From assembly GCA_964347155.1 (NCBI GenBank), contig CAYFXR010000149.1, positions 1 to 33,332 of the forward strand: a DNA stretch of 33,332 nt, written 5' to 3'. The stretch is from an uncultured Nitrospiraceae bacterium (GTDB lineage: Bacteria > Nitrospirota > Thermodesulfovibrionia > UBA6902). The notes beneath the pieces were generated by a model. That model was not told the origin of the DNA. It did no database searches and saw only the letters and a list, made by a program, of their open reading frames with translations. Of this stretch, positions 7,900 to 24,201 are shown in pieces. The first letter of the stretch is position 1. Every line of letters starts with the position of its first letter. The position numbers and the translations under genes were made by a program.

Positions 7900-8754
7900 A
7901 TGTTTAAACTCAGTATATTCCTTATAGCATTTCTAATACTTTTCATTAGTACAAATATATCATATGCTAAGGAAAAGGAGATTATCTTTGCCATTTCGCC
8001 AATGGCATCTCCTGTTTCCACTCTCTCTTATTACAATGATTTTATAAGATATCTTTCTAAAAAGACAGGTCTAATGATCATTCCTAAACAGAGGAGAACC
8101 TACGCTGAGATTAACTCCCTTTTAAAGAAGGGCGAAGCAGAGTTCGCCTATACGTGCACCGGGGCTTACATAAGAGGCAATTTTGACTTCGGACTTGAAC
8201 TCCTTGCCGTGCCAGTCATAAATGGCAAGACAAGCTATCATTCATACATAATTGTAAACAAAGAAAGCAAGATCGAGATCTTCTCCGGGCTTCGAGGAAG
8301 GGTCTTTGCCTTTACAGACCCGCTCTCATTGACAGGGAGACTGTACATCATACATCTCCTTGATACAATGGGTCTCATACCGGAGGAATTTTTTGAAAAG
8401 ACTTTTTACACATCAAGTCATGAAAAATCAATACAATCTGTGGCAAATGGACTTGCAGATGGGGCGGCAGTTGACAGTCTTATTTTTGACGATATGAAGA
8501 GAAAACATGCCCCGTCCACAAGCAATGTAAGAATTATAAAGATTTCACCGCCTTACGGCATACCTCCGGTTGTGGCGTCTCCTGTTGCGGAAAAATCAAC
8601 CAAGCAGCTTATATTAAAGACCCTTATTAAGATGGCAGAGGATACAACCGGAAGGGAGATTCTCCAGGGAATCCATATTGAAAAATTTATTATTCCTGAC
8701 CCTGCTATTTATAAGACTGCGGCAGAAGTGAGGGAGGCAACATTTCTACGGTGA
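7900..8754 (+). CDS. PhnD/SsuA-family periplasmic solute-binding protein (sensor-associated, AioX/ArxX-like)
   Basis: Signal peptide. PhnD-like fold motifs. Single mature Cys in FAYTCTGAY. A strong SD (AGAGGGGAA) precedes the ATG. Overlaps the kinase start (GTGA). Confidence 0.8.
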   Translation: MFKLSIFLIAFLILFISTNISYAKEKEIIFAISPMASPVSTLSYYNDFIRYLSKKTGLMIIPKQRRTYAEINSLLKKGEAEFAYTCTGAYIRGNFDFGLELLAVPVINGKTSYHSYIIVNKESKIEIFSGLRGRVFAFTDPLSLTGRLYIIHLLDTMGLIPEEFFEKTFYTSSHEKSIQSVANGLADGAAVDSLIFDDMKRKHAPSTSNVRIIKISPPYGIPPVVASPVAEKSTKQLILKTLIKMAEDTTGREILQGIHIEKFIIPDPAIYKTAAEVREATFLR

Positions 8755-10175
8755 GATTAGGAAAAATCTACAACAGCATAGCATTTCGCATCTCTATCTC
8801 CATTGCCGTTGTAGTGGCTGCTACAACGATGGGTGTGAGTTGGCTGCTGCTGAGAGAAGAAAGAAAAACACTGGAACTTGAACTTCGTAGCAAGGGAATG
8901 TACCTTGCAAATACAATGTCCCACCATATCATCGAACCATTCCTTTATGAGGAACGGCATGAAATATTCTCTCTTCTCAAAGCATCTATGATTGACGAAG
9001 AGAGTCTTGTGGTGCATGCCGAGGTCTATGACAAGAATAGAGAATTGATTGTTACAGCAGACAAGGATGAAAAGTGGCAAACAATAAAGTTTCAGCCGCT
9101 TAACTTTGAAGATTCACTAGAGGATATTATTATCGAGGAAGACAATATCTTGCCAATTTATCATATATCTTTACCTCTTAAAGTAGAAGCACTTGGAACT
9201 ATTGGATTTATCAGGCTGTGCATAACAAAAGAATACCTTTATAAGACCCTTGGAAATGTAAAACAGAAGCTTTATCTTCTGTCAGCAGCCGTTATCTTTA
9301 TCGGCATAATGCTGGGACTCTGGATGGCAAGAAAAATTTTAAGACCAATACTTATTCTTAATAAAGGGGTAAAAATGGTTGGTGAAGGAGGGCCGGGTGT
9401 TGAGATACCTGTAGTTGGAGAGGGCGAGATAAAAGAGCTGGCACTTTCTTTTAACAGAATGTCCGAGAAATTGAAAGAACAGATTGAGGTGATAAAGACC
9501 GCTCAGGAAAATCTTATAAGGACAGAGAAACTCTATGCCGTTGGAGAATTCTCTGCAGGAATTGCACATGAAATAAAGAACCCTCTTACATCCATCAAAA
9601 TGCTTATGCAGACTACACGATACAAAAAAAAGGCACTGTCCGACAGAGATTTTGAGATTATTGAGGGAGAGATAAACAGGATAGATCGTATCGTAAAAGA
9701 GTTTCTTGCTTTTGCAAGACCTGAAAAGATTGAAAAGACAGATATAAGTATAAATGATGTCCTTGAAGAAGTTATTACATTGACCGAGCCAAAGATGAAA
9801 CAAACTACCATACAACTTGAACAGATGTTTTCTCCCAACCTGCCGATGATCAAGGGAAATCTTGATGGTCTCAAACAGGTTTTTCTCAATATTGTTCTTA
9901 ATGCCTTACAAGCAATGAATGGTGGTGGCACACTGGGTATAGAGACATCAAAGAATAAAGATATGCTGTCAGTTGTAATAAGAGACACCGGCGCTGGGAT
10001 TCCAAAACAGGATTTAAAAAGAATTTTTGACCCTTTCTTTACAACAAAAGAGGAAGGAACCGGTATGGGACTGGCTCTAACGTATAAAATAGTGAATGAC
10101 CACTCTGGCAAGATTGATATAGATTCGACTACATCCGGTACAACGGTAAAAGTGGATTTGCCCTTACCCGAATAA
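8751..10175 (+). CDS. Sensor histidine kinase (2 TM, periplasmic domain, HAMP, HisKA, HATPase_c)
   Basis: HEIKNPLTSI H-box and N/G1/G2 boxes (DTGAGIP, GTGMGLAL). GTG start overlaps the upstream stop. Confidence 0.85.
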   Translation: MRLGKIYNSIAFRISISIAVVVAATTMGVSWLLLREERKTLELELRSKGMYLANTMSHHIIEPFLYEERHEIFSLLKASMIDEESLVVHAEVYDKNRELIVTADKDEKWQTIKFQPLNFEDSLEDIIIEEDNILPIYHISLPLKVEALGTIGFIRLCITKEYLYKTLGNVKQKLYLLSAAVIFIGIMLGLWMARKILRPILILNKGVKMVGEGGPGVEIPVVGEGEIKELALSFNRMSEKLKEQIEVIKTAQENLIRTEKLYAVGEFSAGIAHEIKNPLTSIKMLMQTTRYKKKALSDRDFEIIEGEINRIDRIVKEFLAFARPEKIEKTDISINDVLEEVITLTEPKMKQTTIQLEQMFSPNLPMIKGNLDGLKQVFLNIVLNALQAMNGGGTLGIETSKNKDMLSVVIRDTGAGIPKQDLKRIFDPFFTTKEEGTGMGLALTYKIVNDHSGKIDIDSTTSGTTVKVDLPLPE

Positions 10176-10343
10176 TGCAGACATTGTAATAAAATTTATT
10201 TAATTCGATGGATTTATTATTAAATTATGCATATAGCTTGGAACAAACATATTCACCTTTGATTGGCTGGAATTGCGTCAAAGGTATCGAGAAATAGATT
10301 TTCTTCCAACGCCTGCATTATGTGAAATGCATTTTTTGGGTTT
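10164..10343 (+). mobile_element. MITE-like element, sub-family 2 (copy C), wedged exactly between kinase and sigma54-regulator genes
   Basis: Left TIR TTACCCGAATAATGCAGAC encodes the kinase's last codons L-P-E-stop. Right end ...AAATGCATTTTTTGGGTTT immediately precedes ATG 10344. Confidence 0.7.
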
Positions 10344-11750
10344 ATGAATACACTTCTTATTATAGATGACGAAAAAGCAGTGAGATACTCCTTTAAAAGG
10401 ATGTTTGAAGATGAATACAGGGTTTTAACTGCTGAGGACGGTGTATCGGCTCTGAATATTCTCGATACCAGCTATATTGGTGTTGACGTCATTTTCCTTG
10501 ATGTCAGAATGCCTGGCATGGGGGGGATAGAGGTGCTTAAAAAGATTAAGGAGATAACAAAGAACATTCCTGTTGTAGTAATGACGGCATTTGGCGATTC
10601 TGATACTGCTATTGAAGCTATGAAAGAAGGGGCGTTTGATTACCTTACAAAGCCTTTAGAGGGTAACCAGCTAAAAGATGTTATTGAAAAGGCGCTTGCA
10701 TCGGCACGGCTTCAGCAAGATGCTTCCTGTTGTGGAACGATAGAAGAACTCTCGGATAAGGAAGAGACAATTGTGGGAAAAACTCAGTCAATTCTTGATG
10801 TTTGTAAGATGATCGGTCAGGTTGCAAACACAGATGTGCCTGTGCTCGTAACAGGAGAAAGTGGTGTAGGAAAGGAGTTAGTGGCACGGGCAATATACAA
10901 CCACGGTAGTAGAAAAGGTAGACCTTTTATGGCTGTTAATTGTGCTGCACTTCTTGAGGGTGTGGTAGAGAACGAATTATTTGGTTCAGAGAAAGGGGCA
11001 TTCACGGGCGCTGACAAGAGGAGAATAGGAAGGTTCGAACAGTGTGACGGGGGTACTATCTTCCTTGATGAGATCGGAGATATGAGTATTCCAACTCAAG
11101 CTAAATTACTCAGGGTACTCCAGGATGGTAGCTTCGAGCGTATCGGAAGCAATGAGACAATAAAGACAAATGTGCGTATCATTGCTGCCAGTAATAAAAG
11201 TCTCCACGACGAGGTAAGGAACGGCAGGTTCAGAGAAGACCTGTTTCACAGACTCAATGTTTTTTCCATACACATTCCTGCGCTCAGAGAAAGAATGGAA
11301 GATATTCCGTTGCTCTCAGATTACTTCCTCTCAAGGGCGGTCAGGGATACGGATAAAAAGATCACGGGATTTTCACATGACGTAATTAAACGTTTTATGT
11401 CATATAACTGGCCGGGCAATGTGAGAGAGCTTGAAAATACCATAAAACGGGCTGTGGTAATTACTACTGGAGAGGTTCTTGGTGTGAATGATGTTATTTT
11501 AAATGCTGAGTCATGTACAAAAGAGTTTCAAGAGCTTTCTGTGGTAATTGACGGTTTATTTGAAAGGACGATTAACACGCAAGCCCCTTCAGACAGTTAT
11601 CACTCTATCCTCTCACGTGTGGAAAAATGTCTTATTGAAAAGGCACTAAATGTAACAAAGGGGAATCAGGTACAGGCATCTGCACTACTCGGTATTACAA
11701 GAGTCACATTAAGAAAAAAGATGCAAGAGTTCAAAATCCCGTCTGTATAG
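10344..11750 (+). CDS. Sigma-54-dependent response regulator (REC + AAA+ sigma54-activator + Fis-type HTH), NtrC/AioR-like
   Basis: Receiver Asp (FLDVRMPGMGG), Walker A GESGVGKE, GAFTGA motif, C-terminal HTH. Confidence 0.9.
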   Translation: MNTLLIIDDEKAVRYSFKRMFEDEYRVLTAEDGVSALNILDTSYIGVDVIFLDVRMPGMGGIEVLKKIKEITKNIPVVVMTAFGDSDTAIEAMKEGAFDYLTKPLEGNQLKDVIEKALASARLQQDASCCGTIEELSDKEETIVGKTQSILDVCKMIGQVANTDVPVLVTGESGVGKELVARAIYNHGSRKGRPFMAVNCAALLEGVVENELFGSEKGAFTGADKRRIGRFEQCDGGTIFLDEIGDMSIPTQAKLLRVLQDGSFERIGSNETIKTNVRIIAASNKSLHDEVRNGRFREDLFHRLNVFSIHIPALRERMEDIPLLSDYFLSRAVRDTDKKITGFSHDVIKRFMSYNWPGNVRELENTIKRAVVITTGEVLGVNDVILNAESCTKEFQELSVVIDGLFERTINTQAPSDSYHSILSRVEKCLIEKALNVTKGNQVQASALLGITRVTLRKKMQEFKIPSV

Positions 11751-11812
11751 GAAATGCACAGCCTTTATGCATACTTTTGATCATTTTATATAACTCACTC
11801 CTGATTAAATCC

Positions 11813-11995
11813 TTTAAACCAAAAAATGCATTTCACATAATGCAGGCTTTGTGAAAGAAATTATTTTTCGATACCATAAACGCAATATTAATTGATCGAA
11901 TGTAAATACTTTTATTCGAAGCCATATGCACAATGTAATAATAAATGTATCGAGTTAAATAATTTATTGAGCAATGTCTGCATTATGTAGGTTAA
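11813..11995 (-). mobile_element. MITE-like element, sub-family 1 (copy D), inverted relative to copy C, so the two flank the regulator gene
   Basis: Reverse complement ~90% identical to 2062-2243. Confidence 0.7.
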
Positions 11996-12021
11996 ATAAC
12001 GAATTCCCTTTATCTTTATTT

Positions 12022-12037
12022 TGGCATGTTATTTGCT
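12022..12037 (+). promoter_or_regulatory. Sigma-54 (-24/-12) promoter TGGCATGTTATTTGCT upstream of CheY-like gene
   Basis: GG and GC spaced as in the TGGCAC-N5-TTGCA consensus. Nearly identical to the second site at 12746. Confidence 0.6.
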
Positions 12038-12098
12038 TAACATAACGTCAATACAAGAGTATCTTGACCGTATTATATTTTACGAAACCAAAGATTAC

Positions 12099-12503
12099 AT
12101 GCTGGTAGAAAATAAAGAAAACACTTCTACAGGTATAAAAAAAAGGATTCTGATTGTTGATGATGAAACATTGATTCTCTCTCAGCTGTCAAATGCCCTT
12201 CGTATTTTTTGTGATTTTCAAGGTGAAGTGAAAACTGTTAAAAGTGGCAGGGAAGCTGTGAGAGAAATCAGTCATTGTTTCTGTGACATATGTTTTCTTG
12301 ATATCAATCTCCCTGATTTAAATGGCTTGGAAGTAATGAAAAAAATAAATGAGTTATCTCCTGTGACAAAAATTGCAATTATGACAGCGAGTCTTATAAA
12401 TAATGATATGATGAAGACAATAAAAGACGGCGCATCTCTTCTTATCGAAAAGCCATTCGATCTCTCCCGAATCAAGACTTTTGTGAAACAGGTATTGGGG
12501 TAA
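12099..12503 (+). CDS. Stand-alone CheY-like response-regulator receiver domain
   Basis: RILIVDDE ... DINLPDLNG ... TAS...K receiver motifs. The ORF-track N-terminal extension (12021-12098) overlaps the sigma54 promoter. The first in-frame ATG is at 12099. Confidence 0.75.
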   Translation: MLVENKENTSTGIKKRILIVDDETLILSQLSNALRIFCDFQGEVKTVKSGREAVREISHCFCDICFLDINLPDLNGLEVMKKINELSPVTKIAIMTASLINNDMMKTIKDGASLLIEKPFDLSRIKTFVKQVLG

Positions 12504-12745
12504 ATCTGGGTGTTTTATGGTGTGTCGTAATTGATATTCAGAAACGTATCCTGAAACACGTGCAGCACAAGATTCGGGTAAAATCTTTGCATAGAAAATA
12601 TACAGCCTGTACAATCACTATCCAGAATAATCCAAGAAATGCAGTTAGCCACGATTATAGTGACCCTTTGCCGAGCCCCATTTATAAATGACAAAGGGAG
12701 TTTTTTAAATACTTAATACCATCTTGTAAAAGTTTCAGGGCTAAA

Positions 12746-12761
12746 TGGCAGGTTATTTGCA
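12746..12761 (+). promoter_or_regulatory. Sigma-54 promoter TGGCAGGTTATTTGCA upstream of SPFH gene / respiratory operon
   Basis: Excellent match to TGGCAC-N5-TTGCA. Lies 52 nt upstream of SD AAGGAGGA (12813-12820) and ATG 12826. Confidence 0.7.
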
Positions 12762-12825
12762 TCAAGAAAGGGAAAGGTTCATTGAACAAAAAATCTTTTA
12801 CGAAAAATAAAAAAGGAGGAGTTTG

Positions 12826-13605
12826 ATGCAACAGCTAACTTCTATTGGTTTCTTACTAGCTGTAATTTTAGGTATATATCTTCTTTCAATTGCAATTTAT
12901 ATTCTAAGGGAATACGAGAGGGGTGTCGTCTTCAGGCTTGGTAGGTTAATACCTGTAAAAGGTCCTGGTCTTGTAATTATCATACCAATTATCGATAGAC
13001 TTGTGAAGGTAAGCCTGCGGATCGTTGCCTTGGAGGTGCCTGCTCAGGACGTAATTACAAAAGACAACGTCTCCATAAAAGTAAGTGCGGTTCTCTATTA
13101 CAGACCTGTTGATGCTAACAAGGCCATAACGGAAGTTGAAGATTATCATTACGCTACTTCGCAGATATCTCAAACAACCCTGAGGAGTGTTTTAGGACAC
13201 AGTCATCTTGATGAGCTCCTTGCCAAAAGGGAGGAATTAAATTCTCGGCTACAAAAAATCATTGATGACCAAACAGAACCCTGGGGCATTAAGGTTACGA
13301 CGGTCGAGGTAAAAACCGTTGACCTTCCATCAGAAATGTTGAGGGCAATTGCAAGACAAGCAGAAGCTGAAAGAGAGAGAAGGGCAAAAGTCATTCATGC
13401 AGAAGGTGAATATCAGGCATCTCAAAAACTTGCAGATGCAGCGGCTATCATTGGGACCCAGCCAACGGCAATACAACTCAGATTTCTCCAGACATTAGTA
13501 GAAGTAGCTACTGAAAGGAATTCAACAACAATATTCCCTGTACCCATAGACCTTCTGGAACCTTTCTTGAAGAAATCTAGAAAAGAGAGTGGTGGAGATT
13601 TGTAA
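12826..13605 (+). CDS. SPFH/band-7 (stomatin/prohibitin-like) membrane protein
   Basis: N-terminal TM helix. [15 protein letters not shown]-domain signature. Coiled-coil/Ala-rich C-terminus. Confidence 0.85.
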
Positions 13606-13626
13606 GGGCGAAAGATTGCATACGCG

Positions 13627-14541
13627 ATGTATAGAGAAAACCGAAAGATGAGAAAGCTGAACCGAAGAGAATTTATAAGGCTGACAGCTGTTGGCGGGAC
13701 CGGCATTCTCCTGCCCCAACCGCTAAGGGTGCTTGATGACGCGTTTGACCAAATTATCGGGACTACACAGCAGAATAGCAAGATCGAATATGTACCGAAG
13801 CCGGTCACTGGGGTCAGATTCGGGATGGTTATAGACCTCGGAAAGTGCATTGGTTGCAGGCGGTGCATGTATGCCTGTAAACGGGAAAACAATGTGCCTG
13901 ACACCATTTCCCCTCCTTATATCATGGTGTTTGAAACCGAATCAGCTACGGGCGTAACAGGCCACTTCCCTTCACCGGAAATTCCGTGGAAGGGCACAAC
14001 AATGTATTACACCAGACTCCGGAAAGATAAGTGGTATATGCCAGTACAGTGTAACCATTGCGATCATGCTCCGTGTGTGAAAGTTTGTCCTACCGGAGCG
14101 TCATATAAAGATCCTGATGGTCTTGTATTGATAGATTATGAAAAATGTATAGGATGCCGGTATTGTATGACTGCATGTCCGTACAACGCCCGAAGATTCA
14201 ATTGGTGGGAGCCGGAGATACCTCATGACCGTATAAATCCCCTAGTGCCCTTACGCAGACACGGCATTGTAGAGAAATGCACCTTCTGCGTACACCGTAC
14301 AAGAAGGGGTAAATTCACACGTTGTGTGGAAGTATGCCCGAACAAGGCAAGAACCTTCGGAAATTTCAATGACCCTGACAGCAGGGTTTCCAAATTGGTT
14401 GAAACCGAAAGGAACTTCCGACTAAAGGAAGGACTTAATACAGAGCCACGTATATGGTATCTCACAAGACCCAAAGAAAAGCGCATGAGGTGGTATCGTC
14501 CCCTGCCTCCGTCTGAAAATATCAGAGGTGTCAGGTCATGA
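13627..14541 (+). CDS. TAT-exported 4x[4Fe-4S] ferredoxin subunit (NrfC/PsrB/DmsB-like)
   Basis: Twin-arginine motif NRREFIRL. Four Cys clusters (CIGCRRCMYAC; CNHCDHAPCVKVCP; CIGCRYCMTACP; CTFC...CVEVCP). The alternative start at 13648 is equally possible. Confidence 0.85.
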   Translation: MYRENRKMRKLNRREFIRLTAVGGTGILLPQPLRVLDDAFDQIIGTTQQNSKIEYVPKPVTGVRFGMVIDLGKCIGCRRCMYACKRENNVPDTISPPYIMVFETESATGVTGHFPSPEIPWKGTTMYYTRLRKDKWYMPVQCNHCDHAPCVKVCPTGASYKDPDGLVLIDYEKCIGCRYCMTACPYNARRFNWWEPEIPHDRINPLVPLRRHGIVEKCTFCVHRTRRGKFTRCVEVCPNKARTFGNFNDPDSRVSKLVETERNFRLKEGLNTEPRIWYLTRPKEKRMRWYRPLPPSENIRGVRS

Positions 14542-15716
14542 AAGATGTAAGCAGATCCTTTCACATCTTTGTTGTCGTATTGCTGGTCGTGATAGGCCTG
14601 GGCAGCTTCAACTGGCTTCGTTTCTTAACACATGGCCCCGGACTTACCGGTTCAAGTGATGCGGTGCCATGGGGAATATACATAACCGGGCTGGCATACT
14701 TTATAGGATTAAGTGCAGGCGCAACAATCGTCGGATTATTGATACACGGGTTTGGCCGTAATGACTACAAACCAATAGGGATACGCGCAATTCTTCTCGC
14801 GCTCCTCTGTATCTTCGGAGCCACACAATTTGTCCTGGTAGACCTGGGTGTTCCTTTTAGGGGATTGAAGGTGCCTCTCGTACTTCACAACCTGACGTCA
14901 CTCTTCCTTATCTCCTCGTCAAGCTATTACGGATTTATGACCATATTGGGAGGAGAACTCTACTTCTCAATAAAAGTGGCGAAAGGGAAAGCAAGCCACC
15001 GGGATGAAACAATAGCAAAATGGCTTGGAATTCTTGCGGTTCCGTATGCCCTCTGGGTAGTTCATGCCTTCACTGGATCAATCTTTGGTGTAGTAAAAGC
15101 AAGGGAAATGTGGAATACCCCCATGCTGCCGGTACATTTCGTGATATCAGCCATTGCAAGCGGATTTGCCATGGTGATATTGGTAGGAATAATAACATCG
15201 AAAATAGAAAAAAGAGAGCTCCTGAGCAGTGGAACTTATGACCACATGGGTAAACTGCTGGCCTTCTTTGTGGTAGTAACCCTGTTCCTTGACTTCTTTG
15301 ACTATTTTATTCTTCGATACAGCGCAAAAGCAGAGGCAATGGAAACATGGCATATTCTGACGGGCAGATATGCCCCTGTATTGGCAATGAATATCGGTGG
15401 ATTGGCTTCTGCGTTTTTGATACTGATCTTCAGAAAGGGGAGAACCGTCAATGGAATGTTTATTGCTACGATCCTGGTACAGCTGGCAATCATAGCATAT
15501 CGTATTAATCTGGTATCAGTAGGACAGTTAGTCCCTTTATTCCCGGGTATGGGTGAAATATACTACAGCCCGACATTTTCAGAGATATCAGTGGCGTTGG
15601 CTTTAGTGGCGCTTGTAATACTCCTTTATGCGGTGCTGTCCAGGATAATGCCTATGGAAGAAACAGTTCAGGAACTTGTACAGCAGCCGGTACAACGCAG
15701 CTGGAGGCATAGATAA
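14538..15716 (+). CDS. NrfD/PsrC-family polytopic membrane quinol-interacting subunit
   Basis: 392 aa, ~9-10 TM helices. ATGA overlap with the upstream FeS gene, typical for PsrBC/NrfCD pairs. Confidence 0.85.
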   Translation: MKDVSRSFHIFVVVLLVVIGLGSFNWLRFLTHGPGLTGSSDAVPWGIYITGLAYFIGLSAGATIVGLLIHGFGRNDYKPIGIRAILLALLCIFGATQFVLVDLGVPFRGLKVPLVLHNLTSLFLISSSSYYGFMTILGGELYFSIKVAKGKASHRDETIAKWLGILAVPYALWVVHAFTGSIFGVVKAREMWNTPMLPVHFVISAIASGFAMVILVGIITSKIEKRELLSSGTYDHMGKLLAFFVVVTLFLDFFDYFILRYSAKAEAMETWHILTGRYAPVLAMNIGGLASAFLILIFRKGRTVNGMFIATILVQLAIIAYRINLVSVGQLVPLFPGMGEIYYSPTFSEISVALALVALVILLYAVLSRIMPMEETVQELVQQPVQRSWRHR

Positions 15717-15752
15717 TTATTCATTAAGAAGCAAAAAGGAAAATTGAACTAG

Positions 15753-17279: not shown

Positions 17280-18851
17280 ATGAAAAGAGTTCTTTTATAC
17301 GTAATAACTGCCCTGATAGTCATGACAAATATTCATTATTCATATGCTGCAGAGGAATCATCCGCGGAGTTGCCTTATGTAAGACCCCAGTTTTTCTGTG
17401 GCGCCTGTCATGTCCTTACTTATCCTAAGGTAATAAAAAAGGCGCATACGTCATGGCAGGCTGGTAAACATAAAGATGTCCCCTGTGTAGATTGCCATTA
17501 TCCTCCTGAAAAACTCGATGTCAGAATCCCCGAACATGAAAAAATTCCAAGAGATGAAGAGACTGCATCAGGCAAGAAGACGGCTCTGGAGTTTATGAAG
17601 ACCGAGCTGGAAGTCTTATCAAGGCTGATAACAATATTGAATATGGAAGAGTCAGTGATAAGGACAAAGCCAAGAATTGACGACAGGAGTTGTAAGCAAT
17701 CCAAATGCCATCCGCCAACCGGCATTGGCAGGGAAGGAGAGTTCTGGACTAAAAAAATCAATTTCTTTGAGTATGAAAGAGAGGATAAATCAAAAGGCGT
17801 TATCCCGTATGTTCATGAAAAACATTTTGATAAGGAGAAATGGATAGAAGGTCAGGAGATGCACTGTACAACCTGTCATCAACATGAGACTAGTCAGAAA
17901 CATTTTGAAGTCTCCCGGAAGAAGTGCTTTCTCTGCCACTTTAAGAATGTCAAATTAAATGAAGAACGGGCAAAATGCTCACTATGTCACGAGATTCCCA
18001 CAAAACCTCTTCAGAGACAAAAGAAAGAAGGAGCAGACCCTGATGAAAAACCTATTACTCATCAATCGATTGAAGAGGCAAAGGTACAGTGCGAGAGCTG
18101 CCATCTCCACTTTATAAAAGGTAACGGTACGGTAAGGAAGGAAAAGTGTCTTAATTGTCATGAAAATGAAGAATCAACTATTAAGGAGGTGCTTAATAAA
18201 AAACGTATGCATGAAGAACATGTAGCAGGACAGAATGCCGGTTGTTTTAGTTGCCATGAGACTATTGAGCATAATAAACAGGGAGATTTTATAGATATTG
18301 CAAGGGAAAACTGCCAGGCATGCCATCCTGATCATCATAAGTACCAGAAGATGCTTTTACTTGGAGAAAAGAGGAAAGGAGTATCACATATCCCGGGCCT
18401 CATGTTTGCTGTGAATACGAACTGCCTCGCATGTCATCTTGAAGAAAGACTTATTAATGGAGAGAAAGTTGTGCATGGCTCGGGAAAGGCGTGTGCTGCT
18501 TGCCATACTGAAAAACATGAAGGCATGGTAAAGGAGTGGAAGGACAAGGCAGGGGAAGAGTTAAAGAATGCCCAGGAGATCGGCAAAGAGGCTTCAAATG
18601 CTATTGAAGAAGCAAAGGGCAAGGTGAGGGAGGAGATATTAAAAGAAGCATTGGCAATGGTAAAAGAGGGTCAGGAGAATTTAAAGATTGTTGAATACGG
18701 AGGGGGGGTTCACAATAAGAAATACTCTATAATGCTTCTTGACGTGGCCATGTCCAACTTTGAGGATGCCATAGATTTGCTTAGTGAAGATGAGGACGAA
18801 GAGGAAGGCGAAGAAGACGAAGAATACGATGAAGATGAGGATGATGAATGA
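17280..18851 (+). CDS. Dodecaheme cytochrome c (11 CxxCH + 1 CX4CH) with N-terminal anchor and poly-acidic C-terminal tail
   Basis: Motifs counted directly, including the non-canonical CKQSKCH. Final 27 aa are almost entirely D/E. SD AAGGAGGGA upstream. Confidence 0.85.
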   Translation: MKRVLLYVITALIVMTNIHYSYAAEESSAELPYVRPQFFCGACHVLTYPKVIKKAHTSWQAGKHKDVPCVDCHYPPEKLDVRIPEHEKIPRDEETASGKKTALEFMKTELEVLSRLITILNMEESVIRTKPRIDDRSCKQSKCHPPTGIGREGEFWTKKINFFEYEREDKSKGVIPYVHEKHFDKEKWIEGQEMHCTTCHQHETSQKHFEVSRKKCFLCHFKNVKLNEERAKCSLCHEIPTKPLQRQKKEGADPDEKPITHQSIEEAKVQCESCHLHFIKGNGTVRKEKCLNCHENEESTIKEVLNKKRMHEEHVAGQNAGCFSCHETIEHNKQGDFIDIARENCQACHPDHHKYQKMLLLGEKRKGVSHIPGLMFAVNTNCLACHLEERLINGEKVVHGSGKACAACHTEKHEGMVKEWKDKAGEELKNAQEIGKEASNAIEEAKGKVREEILKEALAMVKEGQENLKIVEYGGGVHNKKYSIMLLDVAMSNFEDAIDLLSEDEDEEEGEEDEEYDEDEDDE

Positions 18852-18983
18852 TTTTATGCTCTGTCCTATGATTGAAATATAGTAACTACTCATGTCTCTT
18901 CCTTTGGAATTTGAAAAAAAGGGAGGATTATAGGGGTGAGTTGCTACAAATATAACACAATTGATCGAAAAAAGGAGGTAACC

Positions 18984-19856
18984 ATGAGTAAGATAAATAC
19001 TGTAACTGTATCCCGCCGCGATGTGCTCAAGACAGGCAGCGCTGTTGTTGCGGCTGCTGCTACAACAACAGGCCTTGTGCCAGATGTAGCAGAGGCTGCA
19101 AAAAAGAAAAAGAAAAAACTTGCCCGCTGGGCTATGGTAGTTGACCTCAGGAGATGCATTGGCTGCAGGGGATGCTGCATTGCAGACAAGGCAGAATATG
19201 GAGCTGCACTCGGAAGGTATAACACGGTTGTCAAGAATGTAGAGTACGGCAAATATCCTGCTCCCCAAAAGCATTTCCTTCCTCGTCTGTGTAACCACTG
19301 TGCAGGCGACCCATCAAAAGAATGGCAGGTCCCGCCATGTGTTGAGGTATGTCCCGAAGCAAAAAGCGGAGAGAGGAAGAAAATGGGGAATGAAAGATAC
19401 AGGACAGGCGCTACGTATAAGCGACCTGACGGGATGATTTTGATAGATCCCAACCTCTGTATCGGCTGTTACAAATGTGTTGATGCATGTCCGTATGGAG
19501 TGCGCTCTCCTGACCCTAATGTAAAGCTTACCAGGCCTGACAGGGAAAAGGATATCGGAGTGGGTAAATGTACGTTCTGCCGGCATCGTGTCGATAAGGG
19601 AATTACGACTTCATGTACGAATACCTGTCAGGGCATGGCAAGGAATTTCGGTGATCTGAACGACAAAAAAAGCAAGGTCTATAAACTTGCCAAGGAATTT
19701 AAATTGCTCGAAAACAGGGACAAGTCAACCCTGCTTCCGGAAGAAAAGACTATGCCTCACGTATTTTATATAGACCCGGATGGTGTGTTAGCGCACTACA
19801 ATAAGAAAATTACAAAAGAGACAAAATTGCGGGAGTTTACATCCTGGTTTGAATAA
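18984..19856 (+). CDS. TAT-exported 4x[4Fe-4S] ferredoxin subunit partner of the molybdopterin enzyme (PsrB/ArrB/DmsB-like)
   Basis: SRRDVLK TAT motif after ATG 18984 (SD AAAGGAGG). Four Cys clusters. The ORF-track GTG 18936 extension is unlikely. Confidence 0.85.
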   Translation: MSKINTVTVSRRDVLKTGSAVVAAAATTTGLVPDVAEAAKKKKKKLARWAMVVDLRRCIGCRGCCIADKAEYGAALGRYNTVVKNVEYGKYPAPQKHFLPRLCNHCAGDPSKEWQVPPCVEVCPEAKSGERKKMGNERYRTGATYKRPDGMILIDPNLCIGCYKCVDACPYGVRSPDPNVKLTRPDREKDIGVGKCTFCRHRVDKGITTSCTNTCQGMARNFGDLNDKKSKVYKLAKEFKLLENRDKSTLLPEEKTMPHVFYIDPDGVLAHYNKKITKETKLREFTSWFE

Positions 19857-19889
19857 TGAATAACGAAAATACAGAAAGGAGGAAATAAA

Positions 19890-22373
19890 ATGGCTAATGT
19901 AACACGACGAAATTTCATACAGCTGGGCATCGCAAGCGGAGCCCTCCTTGCTGCCGGAGAAGGTATTGTATTCCCTGCTTTAGCTGGTGCAGTAAAGTTA
20001 GATAAAGGCGGCAAGGATTTCAACTTTAAGACGGATGCAGAGAGAACAGCCATTCCAACTGCATGCTGGTCATGTTTTACCAGGTGTGCGGCTATCGGTT
20101 TTGTGGAGGATGGCAAGCTTGTTAAAATCGAATCCAATCCTAATTCTATCAGAACCGAGGGCAAAATGTGTGCAAAAGGACAGTCAGGTCCCAACGATAT
20201 CTATTTCCCGGACAGGATACTCTATCCAATGAAACGTGCAGGCAAACGCGGTGAGGGTAAATGGAAGAGGATTTCCTGGGATGAGGCTATTACAGAATTA
20301 TCAGGACGGCTAAAAAAGCTCCGTGACGACGGTAATCCAGAGAAATTCATGTTCCACTATGGCATGATGGAGGCAAGTTCTAGAAAACTGATGAAAAACG
20401 TTTTCCTTGATACGTACGGCACAGGGACGATAGGAAACCATACCTCTACAAGCACGAGCGCAAAAAAGACAGCGCAGGAACTGACGTGGGGCGAGTTCTT
20501 CGATAACTGGGACTTTGACAATACCAAGTTTGTCATGAATTTTGGAAGTAACGTGCAGGAGGCCCATATCAATCATGTACCTTGCTCAAACAGGCTGATA
20601 AAGGCAAGGGTTGAAAACGGTGTAAAGAGTGTTACCTTTGATGTGAGATTTTCAAATACCGCGGCAAAGTCAACTGAATGGATACCAATCAAACCGGGAA
20701 CCGATGGAGCAGTTGCCCTCGCTATGTGTAATGTGATAATGCAAAACGATCTTTATGACAAGGATTTCTTTACATTCATCAGGGCTAAGGAGAATGTCAA
20801 TCTCTCTATAGACGAAAAGGTATCTGCTTTGAAATCTCACCTCTCCCGATATACACCTCAATGGGCGGAAAAAGTAAGCGGTGTGAGCGCCGCTAAGATC
20901 GAATCTCTCGCAAAAGAATTCGCAAAGACAAAGCCTGCAGTAGTAATCAGCTTTAGAGGGGCAATAGCCCATTACAACGGTGTCGAAAACGAACGTGCTA
21001 TCCAGATGCTTGCTGCAATAACAGGCAACATTGATAACCCAGGCGGAAGATGCAGAGGTGTGCGAGCCAGATGGGAATATCCAAAGGGGCCGAAAGATAA
21101 ACCGGAGACAAAGAGACTGGATATAATTGACGGCAAAGGCGCAGCCCTACCGACTCACAACATGGGACACCAGGTATTTAAGATGATCAAGGAAGGCGGT
21201 AATGGAAGACCTGAAGTATACATGTGGTACTGCTATAACCCTGTGTATGTGAACGGCGAAAGCACGGAGAATGCAGAGGTTCTGAAAGACGAAAAGATGA
21301 TCCCCTTTACAGTGGCTTCAACTATTGTCTATGACGAATCGAGCAAACTCGCTGATTTGATCCTGCCTGATGCCACCTATCTCGAAAGATGGGACTGGGA
21401 AGACAATGTCTCCCCCACTCAGATTCCAGAATACTATATCCGACAGCCCCTGGTAAAGCCGCTTGGGGAGGCCAGGGATTTTGGAGACGTGGTGATTGAG
21501 ATTGCAGAGAAAATGGGCATGCCTTTAGGTGTTGGCAGTTCTAAAGAGGAGTTTGTAAGGAAATCCTGCGAGATGACTCCCGGTGTAAAGGAGGCAGGCG
21601 GCTTTGAGTACATGAAGAAGCAGGGTGTGTGGCATGACCCGAATGAAAAACCTCGTTATCATCTATACAGGGAAGAAGTAAAGACTGACGGTGCAATTCT
21701 TGATGAAGCAACGGGCGTATACTGGAGAGGAAAAGCAGGTGAAGATTACACCAAGACCAGAAATGCATACAGACAGTATGTTGGCCAGAAAATAGGAGAC
21801 AAGGTCTACAGAGGCTTTTATCCTGACAAGCTCAATAAGACTGGTTACTTTGAGCTTTACTCCGCGCTTATGAAAGAAAAGGGCTTTGACCCTCTTCCAA
21901 CCTGGATGCCGATACCTGAGCATGAGAACATGAAGCCTGATGAGCTGATTCTTGCTACCTATAAAGTCGCCATTCATATCCTCTCAAGGAGTTCACACCG
22001 TAAATGGCTAAGCGAGGTTTACCATGACAATCCAGGATGGATCAATCCTAAAACCGCAGCTACACGGGGTATCAATGATGGAGACAAAATCAAGGTTAAA
22101 TCAAGAGTCGGAGAGATTATAACCAGAGCACGTGTTACCGAAAAGGTTATTCCCGGAGTCATAGCCATCTCCTTTCATGCAGGACGCGAGGAAAGCGGAA
22201 GATACGGATCAGGCAATAAGTCACCGGAGGCACATGATAATGACCCGGATCTCCAGAACAAGTTCTGGGATACATATGGTGTAAATTCAAACAGGATTAT
22301 CCCCAACTCTTCTGACCCAATAAGTGGCCAGCTGTGCTGTATGGATACGGTTGTAACAGTGACAAAAGCATAG
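19890..22373 (+). CDS. TAT-exported molybdopterin oxidoreductase catalytic subunit, Psr/Phs/Ttr/Arr clade of the DMSO-reductase family
   Basis: TRRNFIQLG TAT signal. N-terminal CxxCxxxC...C [4Fe-4S] motif (CWSCFTRC...MCAKG). RISWDEAI and FGSNVQEAH family motifs. 827 aa. SD AAGGAGGA. Confidence 0.85.
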   Translation: MANVTRRNFIQLGIASGALLAAGEGIVFPALAGAVKLDKGGKDFNFKTDAERTAIPTACWSCFTRCAAIGFVEDGKLVKIESNPNSIRTEGKMCAKGQSGPNDIYFPDRILYPMKRAGKRGEGKWKRISWDEAITELSGRLKKLRDDGNPEKFMFHYGMMEASSRKLMKNVFLDTYGTGTIGNHTSTSTSAKKTAQELTWGEFFDNWDFDNTKFVMNFGSNVQEAHINHVPCSNRLIKARVENGVKSVTFDVRFSNTAAKSTEWIPIKPGTDGAVALAMCNVIMQNDLYDKDFFTFIRAKENVNLSIDEKVSALKSHLSRYTPQWAEKVSGVSAAKIESLAKEFAKTKPAVVISFRGAIAHYNGVENERAIQMLAAITGNIDNPGGRCRGVRARWEYPKGPKDKPETKRLDIIDGKGAALPTHNMGHQVFKMIKEGGNGRPEVYMWYCYNPVYVNGESTENAEVLKDEKMIPFTVASTIVYDESSKLADLILPDATYLERWDWEDNVSPTQIPEYYIRQPLVKPLGEARDFGDVVIEIAEKMGMPLGVGSSKEEFVRKSCEMTPGVKEAGGFEYMKKQGVWHDPNEKPRYHLYREEVKTDGAILDEATGVYWRGKAGEDYTKTRNAYRQYVGQKIGDKVYRGFYPDKLNKTGYFELYSALMKEKGFDPLPTWMPIPEHENMKPDELILATYKVAIHILSRSSHRKWLSEVYHDNPGWINPKTAATRGINDGDKIKVKSRVGEIITRARVTEKVIPGVIAISFHAGREESGRYGSGNKSPEAHDNDPDLQNKFWDTYGVNSNRIIPNSSDPISGQLCCMDTVVTVTKA

Positions 22374-22462
22374 GATTACTCCAAACAATGGGCATTAAAG
22401 AGAAGGAGTTAAAGATTGTTATCAAAATATGCATACACGTCAGTGGAGGACAAATTTAACAA

Positions 22463-22746
22463 TTAACTCAAATAATGCAGAGTCGATTCGACCTCAAAAA
22501 TACCCGTCATACCTCCCCCTTTGGAAAAGGGGGATTTAGGGGGATTTTATAATGATAACGTCCTATAAATCCCCCCTCTCCCCGTATAGGGGCGTTGCAT
22601 CAACGGCGAAAAGCCGCGTTGCGGCCTCGCCGCTTTACGCGGGGCTTTACGCCCCACTTTAATAAAGTGGGGGAAATATATAATTAATATTGCGTTTAAG
22701 GTATCGTCCCGACACATCGGGACATTATTTAAAATGCATTTTTGGG
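22463..22746 (+). mobile_element. MITE-like element (copy E) carrying a ~185-bp GC-rich multi-hairpin cassette
   Basis: Family termini TTAACTCAAATAATGCAGAG ... TTAAGGTATCG...AAAATGCATTTTTGGGCT. Internal hairpins: CCCCCTTTGGAAAAGGGGG; GGGGGATTTTATAATGATAACGTCCTATAAATCCCCC; CCCCACTTTAATAAAGTGGGGG. Confidence 0.65.
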
Positions 22747-22754
22747 CTGAAGAA

Positions 22755-23408
22755 ATGACGAAAAAAATGATCGAAACAGCAAGACAACGAAGCAATATTT
22801 ACGGACTGCTTGCACTTGTTTACCGCAAAGAGGTGACAAAGACACTATTAAGGCATTTAAAAGACCCGGAGTTCCTTTCTGTCTTGTCAAACATGGGAGC
22901 TAGGCTGGAGGATGATTTTTTGAAAAGGCCCGAGGACGAATTAATAGAAGACCTTTCGATAGAATATACAAGACTGTTCTTAGGGCCTGGTAAGCATATC
23001 TCTCCCCATGAATCTGTTCATCATGAGAGAGGTGACGGAGATTGGGGCCAATTGTGGGGCAGGGCAACCGTTGAGGTAAAAAAATTTATTGAAACAGCAG
23101 GGCTTAAATATACGTCCAGTTACCCAGGATTACCTGACCACATCAGCGTTGAATTTGAATTCATGAGGGAAGTTACCAGGCGTGAAGCACATGCCCTCGA
23201 AGAGAATGATAATGATGGGCTGCTCTCTTGTCTGATGATGGAGAACAAATTTATCGAAGACCATCTCTTAAAATGGGTTCCCATCTTTTGTGATAAGATC
23301 ATCTCTGAAGCGGAATTGTCTTTTTACAGGGAAATAGCAAAAATAACAAAGCTTTTTATTGAATTTGAAAAAGAAGAATTGAAGGGATATATATCAGTTT
23401 TATTTTAG
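22755..23408 (+). CDS. TorD/DmsD-family redox-enzyme maturation chaperone
   Basis: EYTRLFLGPG signature. The ORF-track start at 22734 lies inside the repeat terminus (AAATGCATTTTTGGG). ATG 22755 or 22767 is more plausible. Confidence 0.75.
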   Translation: MTKKMIETARQRSNIYGLLALVYRKEVTKTLLRHLKDPEFLSVLSNMGARLEDDFLKRPEDELIEDLSIEYTRLFLGPGKHISPHESVHHERGDGDWGQLWGRATVEVKKFIETAGLKYTSSYPGLPDHISVEFEFMREVTRREAHALEENDNDGLLSCLMMENKFIEDHLLKWVPIFCDKIISEAELSFYREIAKITKLFIEFEKEELKGYISVLF

Positions 23409-23415
23409 ATTTTAT

Positions 23416-24201
23416 TTATCGCAGTCTGAGGTCTGCTGTCACTTTATCCTTATGGCATGTGATACATATTTTAAAAATTGGGCCACTTATACGGAACGTT
23501 GAATTCCCACTTGCTCCTTCTGCCTCAGATCTTTCAGTTTGACCAGCCAGACGAACCCTGTATTTCTCACTAGCCCCTTTTGCGGCAGATTTCTCATAAG
23601 GTATTACTCCTCTTTCATGTGGATTATGACAGGTAGCACACATAATTTCCCCTTTGAAATTTAGCGGAAGTATTATATCGAACTCTTTTTCTGATGCTTT
23701 CATCATTGCCAGCATCTCATTGGATGGCTTGCATATGTGATTTGCATTTACAGGATGTGCATGGTCATACACTTTACTGTGACATCCCAGGCACAGCACA
23801 TCAAGACTTCTAATGAATTTAATTTCCGGACGATGGATTGTAAATGTTGCACGTTTTTCATCAGGCTTTTCCGGATGGCAGTATAAACACTTTTCTCTGA
23901 TAATATCTCCTGTTTCATTTAACTGGTTATGAGGATCGAAAATCTTATATTTATTTTTTTGATGGCACTTAGAACAGATATCTTTTTTTTGAAGGGAGGC
24001 TTTTTTTTGAAATTTCCTTACAGTTCTCTTGTGAACTTTATGCCATCCCCACTTTCCTCTATAGGAAGGATCTATTTCATCGTTTTCAGTATCATTCTGA
24101 GTAAATCTGACAGGTATTATTTTACCTCTCTCTTGTGCGGATAATGTATTGCTCATAGGAATCATTATTATGAGTAGGAGAATTGATATTGTGCGATTCA
24201 T
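23416..24201 (-). CDS. Periplasmic pentaheme cytochrome c
   Basis: Five CxxCH (CSKCH, CLYCH, CLGCH, CATCH, CITCH). The signal peptide starts at the Met at 24201. The upstream 46 codons of the ORF-track model read through a repeat copy. Confidence 0.8.
   Translation of the reverse strand: MNRTISILLLIIMIPMSNTLSAQERGKIIPVRFTQNDTENDEIDPSYRGKWGWHKVHKRTVRKFQKKASLQKKDICSKCHQKNKYKIFDPHNQLNETGDIIREKCLYCHPEKPDEKRATFTIHRPEIKFIRSLDVLCLGCHSKVYDHAHPVNANHICKPSNEMLAMMKASEKEFDIILPLNFKGEIMCATCHNPHERGVIPYEKSAAKGASEKYRVRLAGQTERSEAEGASGNSTFRISGPIFKICITCHKDKVTADLRLR

Follow-up and report, generated by a model that had tools for sequence, protein, structure and literature searches.

Clusters of adjacent genes for a periplasmic binding protein (X), a sensor histidine kinase (S) and a response regulator (R) have been found only beside the molybdoenzymes Aio, Arx and Arr (Badilla et al., PMC5908839). 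The kinases and regulators of AioSR and ArxSR are described as AtoS/AtoC-like, and the binding proteins of this subfamily share a ligand pocket that consists, in AioX numbering, of Tyr88, Cys106, Tyr131, Ser161, Ser163, His192 and Asp210; PhnD is without the Cys (PMC5908839). Such a trio also stands on a contig of 33,332 nucleotides from an uncultured Nitrospiraceae bacterium (CAYFXR010000149.1; the whole stretch is hereafter called the window), before an operon that encodes a molybdoenzyme subunit (MoA), two large multihaem cytochromes, two iron-sulfur (FeS) proteins and an NrfD-family membrane protein. The host is an uncultured sulfate-reducer-like bacterium. Genes were called from an open reading frame (ORF) listing together with Pfam and NCBIfam scans of the window, and haem counts and twin-arginine (RR) motifs come from a separate motif check of the window proteins; every gene named in the original prediction, which had been made from the sequence alone, was recovered in its place. 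With confidence that is about evenly balanced, we read the locus as one sigma54 regulon whose products form an inducible respiratory system in the periplasm; its enzyme would act on a small oxyanion or oxide, and most probably on a species of arsenic or of a related metalloid.

Sensor trio and sigma54 elements

The binding protein (positions 7900..8754; plus strand here and below unless stated otherwise) has a signal peptide and matches Pfam Phosphonate-bd (E 8e-56). It had been described as PhnD-like, and the trio as a whole had been taken to be of the AioXSR/ArxXSR type. Compared with all chains in the Protein Data Bank (PDB), the protein matched ArrX of Chrysiogenes arsenatis best (6x6b, E 7e-46) and AioX of Rhizobium NT-26 at E about 1e-32, while PtxB, HtxB and PhnD spanned 4e-12 (PtxB) to 1e-4 (PhnD); it groups with ArrX/AioX and not with PtxB, PhnD or HtxB. 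The pocket is represented in the window by Y68, C86, Y113, S143, T145, H174 and D192, which correspond in this order to Y88, C106, Y131, S161, S163, H192 and D210 of AioX; all seven positions are kept or conservatively replaced, the one change being Ser163 to T145. Since identity is approximately 33% to ArrX and 31% to AioX, and ArrX and AioX are themselves 33% identical, the window protein appears to represent a lineage as deep as these two. Further loci with MoA relatives were fetched (L001, L002 ... L087; 88 loci including the window, 1.37 Mb in total), and 23 of them supplied 24 more MoA-adjacent binding proteins; the pocket Cys is kept in 20 of these 24, and elsewhere in the pocket those 20 have at most conservative changes. 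On these comparisons, we regard membership in the AioX/ArxX/ArrX subfamily as established, and the binding of an arsenic ligand as only predicted.

The kinase gene (8751..10175), whose start overlaps the stop of the binding-protein gene by 4 nt, encodes two transmembrane segments and an extracytoplasmic domain of ~135 aa, then HAMP, HisKA and HATPase domains (Pfam); its best NCBIfam model is AtoS (255 bits). The sigma54-dependent response regulator of the NtrC/AtoC type (10344..11750) combines a receiver with Sigma54_activat, AAA_lid_14 and HTH_8 domains and scores 468 bits with the NCBIfam model for NtrC and 433 bits with that for AtoC. With X, S and R adjacent, an AtoC-type sigma54 activator and an RpoN-type promoter before the structural genes, the assignment of the trio to the AioXSR/ArxXSR type holds. 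What it adjoins is none of Aio, Arx and Arr: MoA lies outside ArrA/ArxA and scores 36.5 bits with the AioA model. The link of a binding protein and a sigma54 activator to this enzyme is seen in Nitrospirota, Desulfobacterota and Alphaproteobacteria. Desulfobacterales loci have a variant in which the kinase and the regulator are replaced by one polypeptide beside the binding protein (L020:4451-6670). It consists of a transmembrane region, HAMP, a central domain, a sigma54 AAA+ domain and a helix-turn-helix, an arrangement with a membrane-anchored activator and no phosphorelay; ~740-aa "RR54" proteins of the same type occur in L016, L018, L019, L025, L034-L036 and L047.

Three near-identical TGGCA-N6-TTGC (-24/-12) elements, all intergenic and correctly oriented, stand one each before the cheY-like gene, before the main operon and before the gene of a convergent pentahaem cytochrome. 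The first, TGGCATGTTATTTGC (12022..12036), lies 63 nt before the ATG at 12099 of the cheY-like gene; the second, TGGCAGGTTATTTGC (12746..12760), lies 62 nt before the start of the first operon gene and is the main operon promoter; and the third, TGGCATTATTTTTGC (24393..24379, minus strand), is upstream of the pentahaem gene. The promoter that had been predicted before the operon is thus real as a motif. With one mismatch allowed, the sigma54 motif has five matches in the window, against 1.8 expected, and the two that are left lie antisense within genes and were taken as chance. Six related loci, belonging to three lineages, have equivalent elements ahead of their operon (L001, L045, L053, L060, L057 and L077). 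Given three correctly oriented intergenic elements with equivalents in related loci, the region looks like a single sigma54 regulon made up of three transcription units. No enrichment of sigma70 promoter-like or terminator-like sites was seen in it.

The cheY-like gene (12099..12503) encodes a single-domain receiver (Pfam Response_reg, E 1e-23) and has a counterpart at the equivalent position in 14 related loci. Its ATG at 12099 is the likely start, and the TTG at 12021 chosen by the ORF finder is probably wrong. Further upstream, between 35 and 190 nt from the cheY promoter, is a 32-nt inverted pair (11835-11866 and 11957-11988, 81% complementary) containing ACATAATGCAG and CTGCATTATGT, and repeats containing ATGCA (12586-12650) are found ~100 nt upstream of the operon promoter. 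Both are candidate activator-binding sites.

The MoA clade and its Mo ligand

MoA (19890..22373) is an 827-aa catalytic subunit of the type that binds molybdenum or tungsten through bis(pyranopterin guanine dinucleotide) (bisPGD) and is exported by twin-arginine translocation (TAT). It has the Pfam domains Molybdop_Fe4S4, Molybdopterin and Molydop_binding, and its FS0 motif is present (C59-x2-C62-x3-C66...C94). All NCBIfam models score below their cut-offs: PhsA 342 bits (cut-off 694), DmsA/YnfE 327 (778), QrcB 184 (440), ArrA 175 (1600) and TtrA 121 (1750); the TorA models give only 69-76 bits. The best relatives with solved structures are PsrA (E 3e-51) and ArrA (2e-45), and the ActB chain of alternative complex III (ACIII) was absent from the PDB hits down to E 1e-10. 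An AlphaFold2 model of MoA from a 15-sequence alignment had a mean predicted local distance difference test score of 49.5 and was discarded.

Relatives of MoA are numerous. We list 120 cluster representatives with at least 63% identity, all of them from metagenomes or metagenome-assembled genomes (MAGs) and with generic names only. A scan of one genome per GTDB species returned 545 relatives, the best 80 of which are MAGs without exception; their hosts belong to Nitrospirota (Thermodesulfovibrionia), Desulfobacterota, Alpha- and Gammaproteobacteria, Mariprofundaceae and Nitrospinota, and one is an archaeon. At the 50%-identity level of the library, few representatives of the family remain, and the proteins that come next (38-50% identity) are again from MAGs, many of them without the ligand Cys that is discussed below. 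These next-nearest Cys-less MopB proteins were considered as QrcB, and none of the 10 scanned (seven of them ligand-less) reached the required score, the maximum being 248 bits against 440.

The original prediction proposed placing the catalytic subunit among references that include ArrA, ArxA, PsrA, PhsA, QrcB and ActB. We built bootstrapped neighbour-joining trees of partial sequences in sets of 31 and 36. The MolyA references are those of Novak et al. (PMC12998232); the other references are the first ~400 residues of proteins that Leu et al. give in their supplement (PMC7327174). A "deep-branching clade" beside Arr/Arx that is described from Methanoperedens ASW-3 lay outside this reference set, as did AnrA and SbrA. 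The MoA clade is monophyletic with 100% bootstrap, as are ArrA and ArxA together with 97%, and the two groups are sisters in 72% (31 sequences) or 60.5% (36 sequences) of the replicates. MoA joined QrcB in 0 of 200 bootstraps. The subunit thus stands in a clade apart, for which ArrA/ArxA is the weakly supported sister group, and shows no grouping with the cofactor-less QrcB; it is not inside ArrA/ArxA, as both its ArrA score and its sister position indicate. Conserved motifs bear on the same question. A Gly-Arg motif is common to the family members that have the ligand Cys and to Arr, Arx, Ttr, Srd and Sre (HYGRM in these MoA relatives, RGRY in ArrA and YGRGW in ArxA), Psr, Phs and MolyA being without it, and the H-x3-C loop of the Cys-containing relatives is also found in Arr, Arx, Ttr, Srd and Sre. 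Together, the trees and the Gly-Arg motif suggest, with moderate support, that the MoA family is a clade of its own within the "chalcophile oxyanion" group and has the arsenic enzymes as its closest neighbours. Wells et al. show unnamed MAG-derived lineages in the corresponding part of the family tree.

Several other identities were tried and rejected. MoA as a member of PsrA/PhsA fails on the PhsA cut-off and on its separate position in the trees; as a member of DmsA/TorA it shares a Ser at the Mo-ligand position, but it does not reach the DmsA/YnfE and TorA model scores. The clade does not correspond to the MOLY cluster of sulfur disproportionators either, being 30-33% identical to MolyA of Dissulfuribacter, Desulfocapsa and Desulfurella and falling in a different clade. 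Two described candidates lie outside the family: the candidate for "alternative arsenite oxidation" in Thioalkalivibrio is Soe-like and cytoplasmic, and the Sb(III) oxidase NaoABC is NapA-like.

The window protein differs from most of its family at the Mo ligand itself. HMMER alignments to PsrA and to ArrA both place Ser188 of MoA on the ligand Cys, and the ligand loop, for which the family consensus is H-T-S-I-C-E-G-G-K-W, reads H-T-S-T-S-T-S-A-K-K in the window and its closest relatives. We refer to these two forms as Cys-type and Ser-type. The Ser variant occurs in 13 of the 120 listed representatives and in seven fetched loci, and it forms a monophyletic subclade (99-100% bootstrap) nested among Cys-type Nitrospirota sequences, the closest of which are 76-78% identical. 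When 12 Ser-type sequences were compared with 149 Cys-type sequences, ten positions were fixed differently (Ser-type/Cys-type): 46 F/P, 103 D/Q, 187 T/I, 188 S/C, 189 T/E, 193 K/W, 355 F/Y, 406 E/K, 698 L/H and 799 N/H. Arg159 of the Cys-type is replaced in the Ser-type by Met, Thr, Val or Leu; the window has Met, and it reads HYGMM where Cys-type relatives have HYGRM. All 13 Ser-type sequences have Ser188 itself, and the STSTS..KK loop around it hardly varies. Another loop, HESTSNSAKW, is found in the MoA relative of L086 (P0009).

Both types can coexist. The MAG Glo_13 has a Ser-type and a Cys-type operon, each with its own binding protein and kinase (L017 and L013, respectively), and in L085 the two types are convergent on one contig and 57% identical. 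The binding proteins of the Glo_13 pair differ as well: in that of the Cys-type operon (L013:11808-12662) the pocket Cys is replaced by Ser and the pocket Asp by Gly, and that of the Ser-type operon keeps both residues. The window enzyme bears the signature of a duplicated, neofunctionalised paralogue with a changed substrate pocket. Because an Arg, a Glu, a Tyr and two His have been lost, the Ser-type enzyme probably does not handle the same species as its Cys-type sister but a less anionic one. Ser is among the usual Mo ligands, as in DmsA and TorA, and since, in addition, the replacement motif is strictly conserved, we rate the probability that the Ser-type has lost catalysis as low.

Ser-type operons are also distinctive in their 12-haem cytochromes, which end in a poly-Asp/Glu tail of 20-60 residues, the last 40 residues being up to 80% acidic (window 18750-18851, the C-terminus; L085:6444-8027; L005:5343-7118; L001:7116-8774). 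Most Cys-type homologues stop right after a GGGVHNKKYS...FEDAIDLL motif, and the tail in L009 is Cys-rich and acidic. Cation or mineral binding and docking are possibilities for the role of the acidic tail.

Partner proteins and conserved gene order

The operon begins with an SPFH/Band 7 (stomatin-like) membrane protein (12823..13605; Pfam Band_7, E 2.5e-40), followed by FeS1, a TAT-exported, four-cluster, DsrO/NrfC-like protein with 16 Cys and an RR motif (13627..14541), and by a DsrP-like, NrfD-family integral membrane subunit of the quinone-interacting kind (14538..15716; Pfam NrfD, E 1e-30). Then come two cytochromes: OHC8, a membrane-anchored octahaem cytochrome c of the OcwA/NrfA superfamily with eight CXXCH motifs (15753..17219), and MHC12, a 12-haem protein with an N-terminal anchor, 11 CXXCH motifs and one CX4CH (17280..18851). 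FeS2, a second TAT-exported four-cluster subunit and the electron-transfer partner of MoA in the catalytic dimer (18936..19856; Pfam Fer4_11, TAT_signal), stands directly before MoA, and a TorD/DmsD-family maturation chaperone (22734..23408; Pfam Nitrate_red_del, E 1e-24) follows it after a gap of 360 nt in which we found no convincing ORF. Facing the operon is MHC5, a pentahaem cytochrome c with a signal peptide and five CXXCH motifs (24201..23416, minus strand), with homologues within or next to the operon in L001, L005, L007, L008, L009, L017 and L085.

In a BLAST comparison of the window proteins with the ORFs of 84 loci, three layouts were seen, and over the whole set these recur in 87 loci. 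Type I, in Proteobacteria, is a plain FeS-NrfD(PsrC-like)-Mo-TorD. Type II, in Desulfobacterota, starts with the binding protein and the sigma54 regulator, then has a NapC-like cytochrome, FeS2, the Mo subunit and TorD, and then the octahaem cytochrome, FeS1 and NrfD. Type III is the order of the window and is found in Nitrospirota and some Desulfobacterota. In the synteny search suggested with the original prediction, the gene order proved to be no chance juxtaposition: it recurs in seven Nitrospirota loci (L001, L005, L009, L021, L085, L086 and L087) and is permuted in Desulfobacterota. Because of the three layouts, and because the two halves of the operon are swapped in L087, the system consists of two modules that stay together. 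Module A comprises SPFH, FeS1, NrfD and the octahaem cytochrome, and is found with the catalytic dimer in Nitrospirota and Desulfobacterota; module B is the catalytic dimer and the NapC/NirT-derived cytochrome that always accompanies it.

The origin of this cytochrome is seen best in its relatives. The Pfam scan finds no Cytochrom_NNT domain in the window MHC12 itself, but homologues that are 43% (L002) and 40% (L001) identical to it over ~500 aa do carry this domain. We take the 12-haem protein to be NapC/NirT-derived (11-12 haems in relatives) and a conserved partner of the enzyme; through this relationship it would be analogous to CymA feeding ArrAB or TorC feeding TorA. FeS2 lies directly upstream of MoA in type II and type III relatives, NrfD being between them in type I, and TorD comes after MoA in most related loci. 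The NCBIfam scores of FeS2 are all below cut-off (TtrB 148, DsrO 148 and ArrB 118 bits).

For module A, FeS1 passes the DsrO cut-off (218.9 bits against 200) and scores 173 bits with QrcC and 167 with ArrB. The NrfD subunit reaches 110.7 bits with DsrP, against a cut-off of 350, and its best PDB match is ActC of ACIII (E 1e-5). An identity with DsrMKJOP was rejected: DsrO passes, DsrP does not, and no DsrMKJ genes are adjacent. The octahaem cytochrome is closest to OcwA (6i5b, E 2e-22), the terminal extracellular-electron-transfer cytochrome of Thermincola, with NrfA and MccA at ~1e-6. The SPFH gene, which has no NfeD partner, is the first gene of the FeS1-NrfD-octahaem module in all seven Nitrospirota loci named above, which suggests a membrane scaffold for a respiratory complex.

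Additional genes accompany some of the loci. L086 (1435-2364) and, as a homologue, L009 encode a secreted two-domain rhodanese with the active-site loop CQGAMKT between the sigma54 regulator and SPFH. Downstream of type II loci (L018, L019, L033-L036, L038, L047, L068 and also L009), a ~528-aa protein is repeatedly found in which a c3-type haem domain is fused to a membrane domain of the cytochrome b561/Ni_hydr_CYTB kind; it is a possible third quinone-linked module.

The flanks of the window are rich in molybdenum genes: a MoaA with a MoeA-like/MoCF_biosynth protein for molybdenum cofactor synthesis (3088..5306, minus strand), a ModE-like helix-turn-helix fragment, an FmdE-domain protein (6887..7489, minus strand) and a MOT1-family molybdate transporter (24510..25697, minus strand; Pfam MFS_MOT1, E 3e-51). 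A MoeA-like gene is present in eight related loci. The FmdE-domain protein is fused to a DksA/TraR-type zinc finger (both recognised by Pfam), matched no NCBIfam model and may serve cofactor or metal handling; the same type occurs in nine related loci (L013, L019, L020, L025, L030, L034, L036, L047 and L051). An apparently unrelated gene (29236-31428, minus strand) encodes a 730-aa fusion of a 2-hydroxyacyl-CoA dehydratase D-component with a BcrAD/BadFG activator ATPase.

Substrate, alternatives and comparison with known systems

Clues to the substrate come from neighbouring genes as well as from the sensor. The original prediction pointed to a genuine ArsC upstream of the locus. The protein (1480..1917, minus strand) does have the CX5R loop (CTANSCRS) and the Cys85/Cys92 pair (LCGNAEVICP) that make up the catalytic Cys triad of thioredoxin-type ArsC; its score with TIGR02691, at 156 bits, is just under the cut-off of 174.3, and we call it ArsC-like. 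Across the 88 loci, arsenic-resistance genes are found within about 10 kb in six. In L020, arsR and acr3 (ACR3 375 bits, cut-off 283) stand ahead of the genes for the binding protein and the sigma54 regulator, cheY and the operon, in this order. In L010, a Cys-type locus with the window layout, a convergent arsR, acr3 (464 bits), arsA and arsC-like gene face MoA-TorD. ACR3 is also present in L018 and L051, and the two other cases are a two-domain ArsA in L001 (Ser-type) and the ArsC-like gene of the window. On an informal estimate, we judge this frequency to be above expectation for genes present at one or two per genome. From the sensor, the clade and this context, arsenic or another metalloid oxyanion is the most likely substrate.

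The system might work as follows. A ligand-loaded binding protein would activate the kinase, and the phosphorylated regulator would open the three sigma54 promoters, with the CheY-like receiver perhaps modulating the relay. The MoA-FeS2 dimer would be matured by TorD and exported by TAT. Electrons would pass from the menaquinone pool through NrfD/FeS1, the octahaem cytochrome, the 12-haem cytochrome and FeS2 to the Mo site; alternatively or additionally, they may enter directly via the NapC-like 12-haem cytochrome, as CymA feeds ArrAB. Since the reductive direction is likely in an anaerobe, the substrate would be reduced at the Mo site and the enzyme would be a terminal reductase, oxidation in reverse being possible. 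The SPFH protein may scaffold the assembly in the membrane.

Several points weigh against this reading. We infer both the substrate and the direction, and the hosts are known only as MAGs. The sisterhood with Arr/Arx reaches only 60-72%, in neighbour-joining trees of the first ~400 residues with few references; identities of the MoA family to ArxA, PsrA and MolyA are alike, at about 30-34%, and lower to ArrA, SreA, SrdA and TtrA; and the best curated hidden Markov model (HMM) for MoA is PhsA. Arsenic-resistance genes adjoin six of the 88 loci only. The periplasmic rhodanese inside the operons of L086 and L009 and the sulfur-cycling lineages of the hosts fit a sulfur substrate. The loss of Cys, Arg, Tyr and two His in the Ser-type could also mean lost catalysis. 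Finally, pocket residues alone do not decide ligand specificity (Badilla et al., PMC5908839).

The strongest alternative, which we nevertheless consider unlikely, is a reductase of sulfur compounds (thiosulfate, polysulfide, tetrathionate or sulfite) with a sensor for a sulfur oxyanion, in which the octahaem cytochrome would reduce a sulfite-type product in the manner of Mcc or Nrf. It draws on the curated models, since the best for MoA (PhsA), FeS2 (TtrB) and FeS1 (DsrO) are all of the sulfur type, and yet every one of these scores except DsrO is far below its cut-off, and MoA, at 30-33% identity to PsrA, PhsA and MolyA, does not group with them. The weak similarity of the octahaem cytochrome to MccA and NrfA, the two-domain rhodanese, a TauE gene near the window operon and hosts among the Thermodesulfovibrionia and the relatives of Desulfocapsa and Desulfobulbus would all suit it. 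It has to contend, however, with ACR3 and ars genes beside several related loci and with a sensor subfamily that is so far tied to arsenic alone: thiosulfate, tetrathionate and sulfate are not bound by AioX, ArxX or ArrX (PMC5908839).

Somewhat less probable again is that the system respires some different oxyanion of pyramidal or tetrahedral shape, for instance one of antimony (antimonate or antimonite) or selenium (selenite or selenate), or tellurite, phosphite or iodate, perhaps by an enzyme related to AnrA. The clade shares its "GR-motif" group with SrdA (selenate) and TtrA, YnfE/F selenate reductases have a Ser ligand as well, and ACR3 is generally known to export antimonite too. The antimonate reductase AnrA has been reported from Desulfuribacillus stibiiarsenatis and from a Geobacter (sp. 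SVR), the latter a member of Desulfobacterota, but no cultured Geobacter or Desulfuribacillus was among the loci of the top 80 genomes, the named protein hits or the sampled next-nearest representatives. In addition, the AioX-type proteins examined to date bound arsenic species only, or phosphate weakly (PMC5908839).

That the Ser-type subunit of the window is a non-catalytic redox or structural scaffold like QrcB/ActB, and the operon a Qrc/ACIII-like quinone:cytochrome c oxidoreductase, we consider improbable: it would account for a parts list equal to that of Qrc/ACIII (multihaem c, MopB-like protein, FeS protein and NrfD), for the loss of the ligand Cys, Arg159, Glu189, Tyr355, His698 and His799 in the subclade, for the many next-nearest representatives (38-45% identity) without the Cys and for Ser operons without their own TorD in L001 and L085, but it is opposed by the use of Ser as a genuine ligand in DmsA and TorA, by a replacement too uniform for drift in a protein otherwise 76-78% identical to Cys-type enzymes, by the QrcB score and bootstrap given above, by the presence of a dedicated ligand sensor and, indirectly, by the retained FS0 motif, TAT signal, adjacent TorD and cofactor genes, which favour the presence of the cofactor.

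If the metalloid reading is followed further, the clade may tentatively be seen as a fourth metalloid-respiring molybdoenzyme family beside Aio, Arx and Arr, which would use the same ancient XSR sensor together with NapC-/OcwA-type multihaem cytochromes and a DsrOP-like quinone module, and in which a recent Cys-to-Ser switch, with a concerted change of the substrate pocket, would have given rise to paired paralogues in one genome for two species. We hold this to be a good deal less certain than the reading itself. Such a pair may divide arsenate from neutral or thiolated arsenic or antimony species, and a fourth enzyme clade under XSR control would widen the known routes of arsenic and metalloid cycling. 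Members of the clade occur widely in Nitrospirota, Desulfobacterota and Proteobacteria MAGs from marine sediment, hydrothermal and groundwater settings, and surveys built on arrA, arxA and aioA would overlook them. The natural exchange of Cys for Ser between paralogues that are 57-78% identical offers a ready system for relating the first coordination sphere to substrate choice in the DMSO-reductase family, and the combination of a Mo enzyme, multihaem cytochromes and an NrfD module bears on the origin of Qrc and ACIII from catalytic ancestors. Since the binding protein is soluble and of small size, its ligand is directly accessible to experiment.

All parts of the system are of known kinds: complex iron-sulfur molybdoenzymes (CISM), XSR sensors, and NapC and NrfD modules. 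New, as variations on these kinds, are the MoA clade and its Ser-type subclade, and the way in which the enzyme is constantly joined to two multihaem cytochromes and two quinone-side modules. The interpretation given in the original prediction is supported and becomes more precise. Four points go beyond it: the Ser at the Mo-ligand position, the NapC/NirT ancestry of the 12-haem protein and its role as conserved partner, the wide occurrence of the clade, and the arsenic-resistance genes beside several related loci. The gene order had not been recognised in the original prediction, and it was found neither in a curated family nor in the searchable literature, nor did a named protein of any cultured organism match; the MoA clade likewise has no curated model, cultured host or account there.

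Among the known systems, NrfCD, MccCD and DsrOP resemble the window in having an FeS protein and an NrfD-like membrane pair beside a multihaem cytochrome of the NrfA superfamily; in contrast to those of Nrf and Mcc, the octahaem cytochrome has no catalytic CXXCK or CX15CH haem motif and is closest to OcwA. PsrABC, PhsABC and MolyABC share the CISM architecture, PsrA being the best structural match and PhsA the best HMM, and those relatives in Proteobacteria that are of type I have simply FeS, NrfD, Mo and TorD genes. However, these enzymes are only 30-33% identical to MoA, belong to another clade and are without the GR motif of the Cys-type, and the window operon is under a sensor of the arsenic type. 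The TorTSR-TorCAD system of E. coli has a comparable plan, in which a binding protein, a kinase and a regulator control a NapC/NirT cytochrome, a Ser-ligated Mo enzyme and TorD, but TorT is from another binding-protein family, TorR is not sigma54-dependent, and TorA has neither FS0 nor an FeS partner.

Arr (ArrAB with CymA or ArrC) is alike in its Mo-bisPGD subunit, which is periplasmic and exported by TAT, in the four-cluster FeS protein paired with it and in a chaperone of the TorD type. CymA, a protein of the NapC/NirT type, feeds electrons to Arr in Shewanella ANA-3, and the window has a NapC-like cytochrome; ArrX is the closest solved relative of the window sensor, ArrA/ArxA are nearest to the clade, and ars genes are near some loci. 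On the other hand, MoA is ~29-32% identical to ArrA, is without the (R/K)GRY motif and, in the window, has Ser for the Mo-ligand Cys; the window also integrates an 11-12-haem cytochrome, an octahaem cytochrome, a second FeS protein, NrfD and SPFH. The regulators differ as well, ArrR of C. arsenatis being CitB-like (PMC5908839) and that of the window AtoC/sigma54-type. In a Methanoperedens element, arrXSR-like genes are known to have been recruited in an analogous way by another enzyme, which is SreA-like.

Arx (ArxB'ABCD with ArxXSR) is similar in its X-S-R trio, its AtoC-type sigma54 regulator and RpoN promoter, and its set of two FeS proteins, an NrfD-like subunit and TorD, and of the references compared in pairs with P0031, a Cys-type relative, ArxA has the highest bit score (34% identity). 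It differs in that the XGRGWG motif is missing from the window clade, which is separate and has multihaem cytochromes inserted into its operon, and in that Arx hosts are Proteobacteria and those of the window type strict anaerobes of Nitrospirota and Desulfobacterota. Qrc (QrcABCD) and ACIII share the kinds of subunit, and ActC is the best solved relative of the NrfD protein; nevertheless, the MopB subunit of the window retains FS0, a TAT signal and a chaperone, and the QrcB, QrcC and QrcD models score far below their cut-offs. Because of its hard-wired multihaem cytochromes and DsrOP-like quinone module, the window system appears to lie, in composition, between the catalytic Arr-type enzymes and the non-catalytic Qrc and ACIII.

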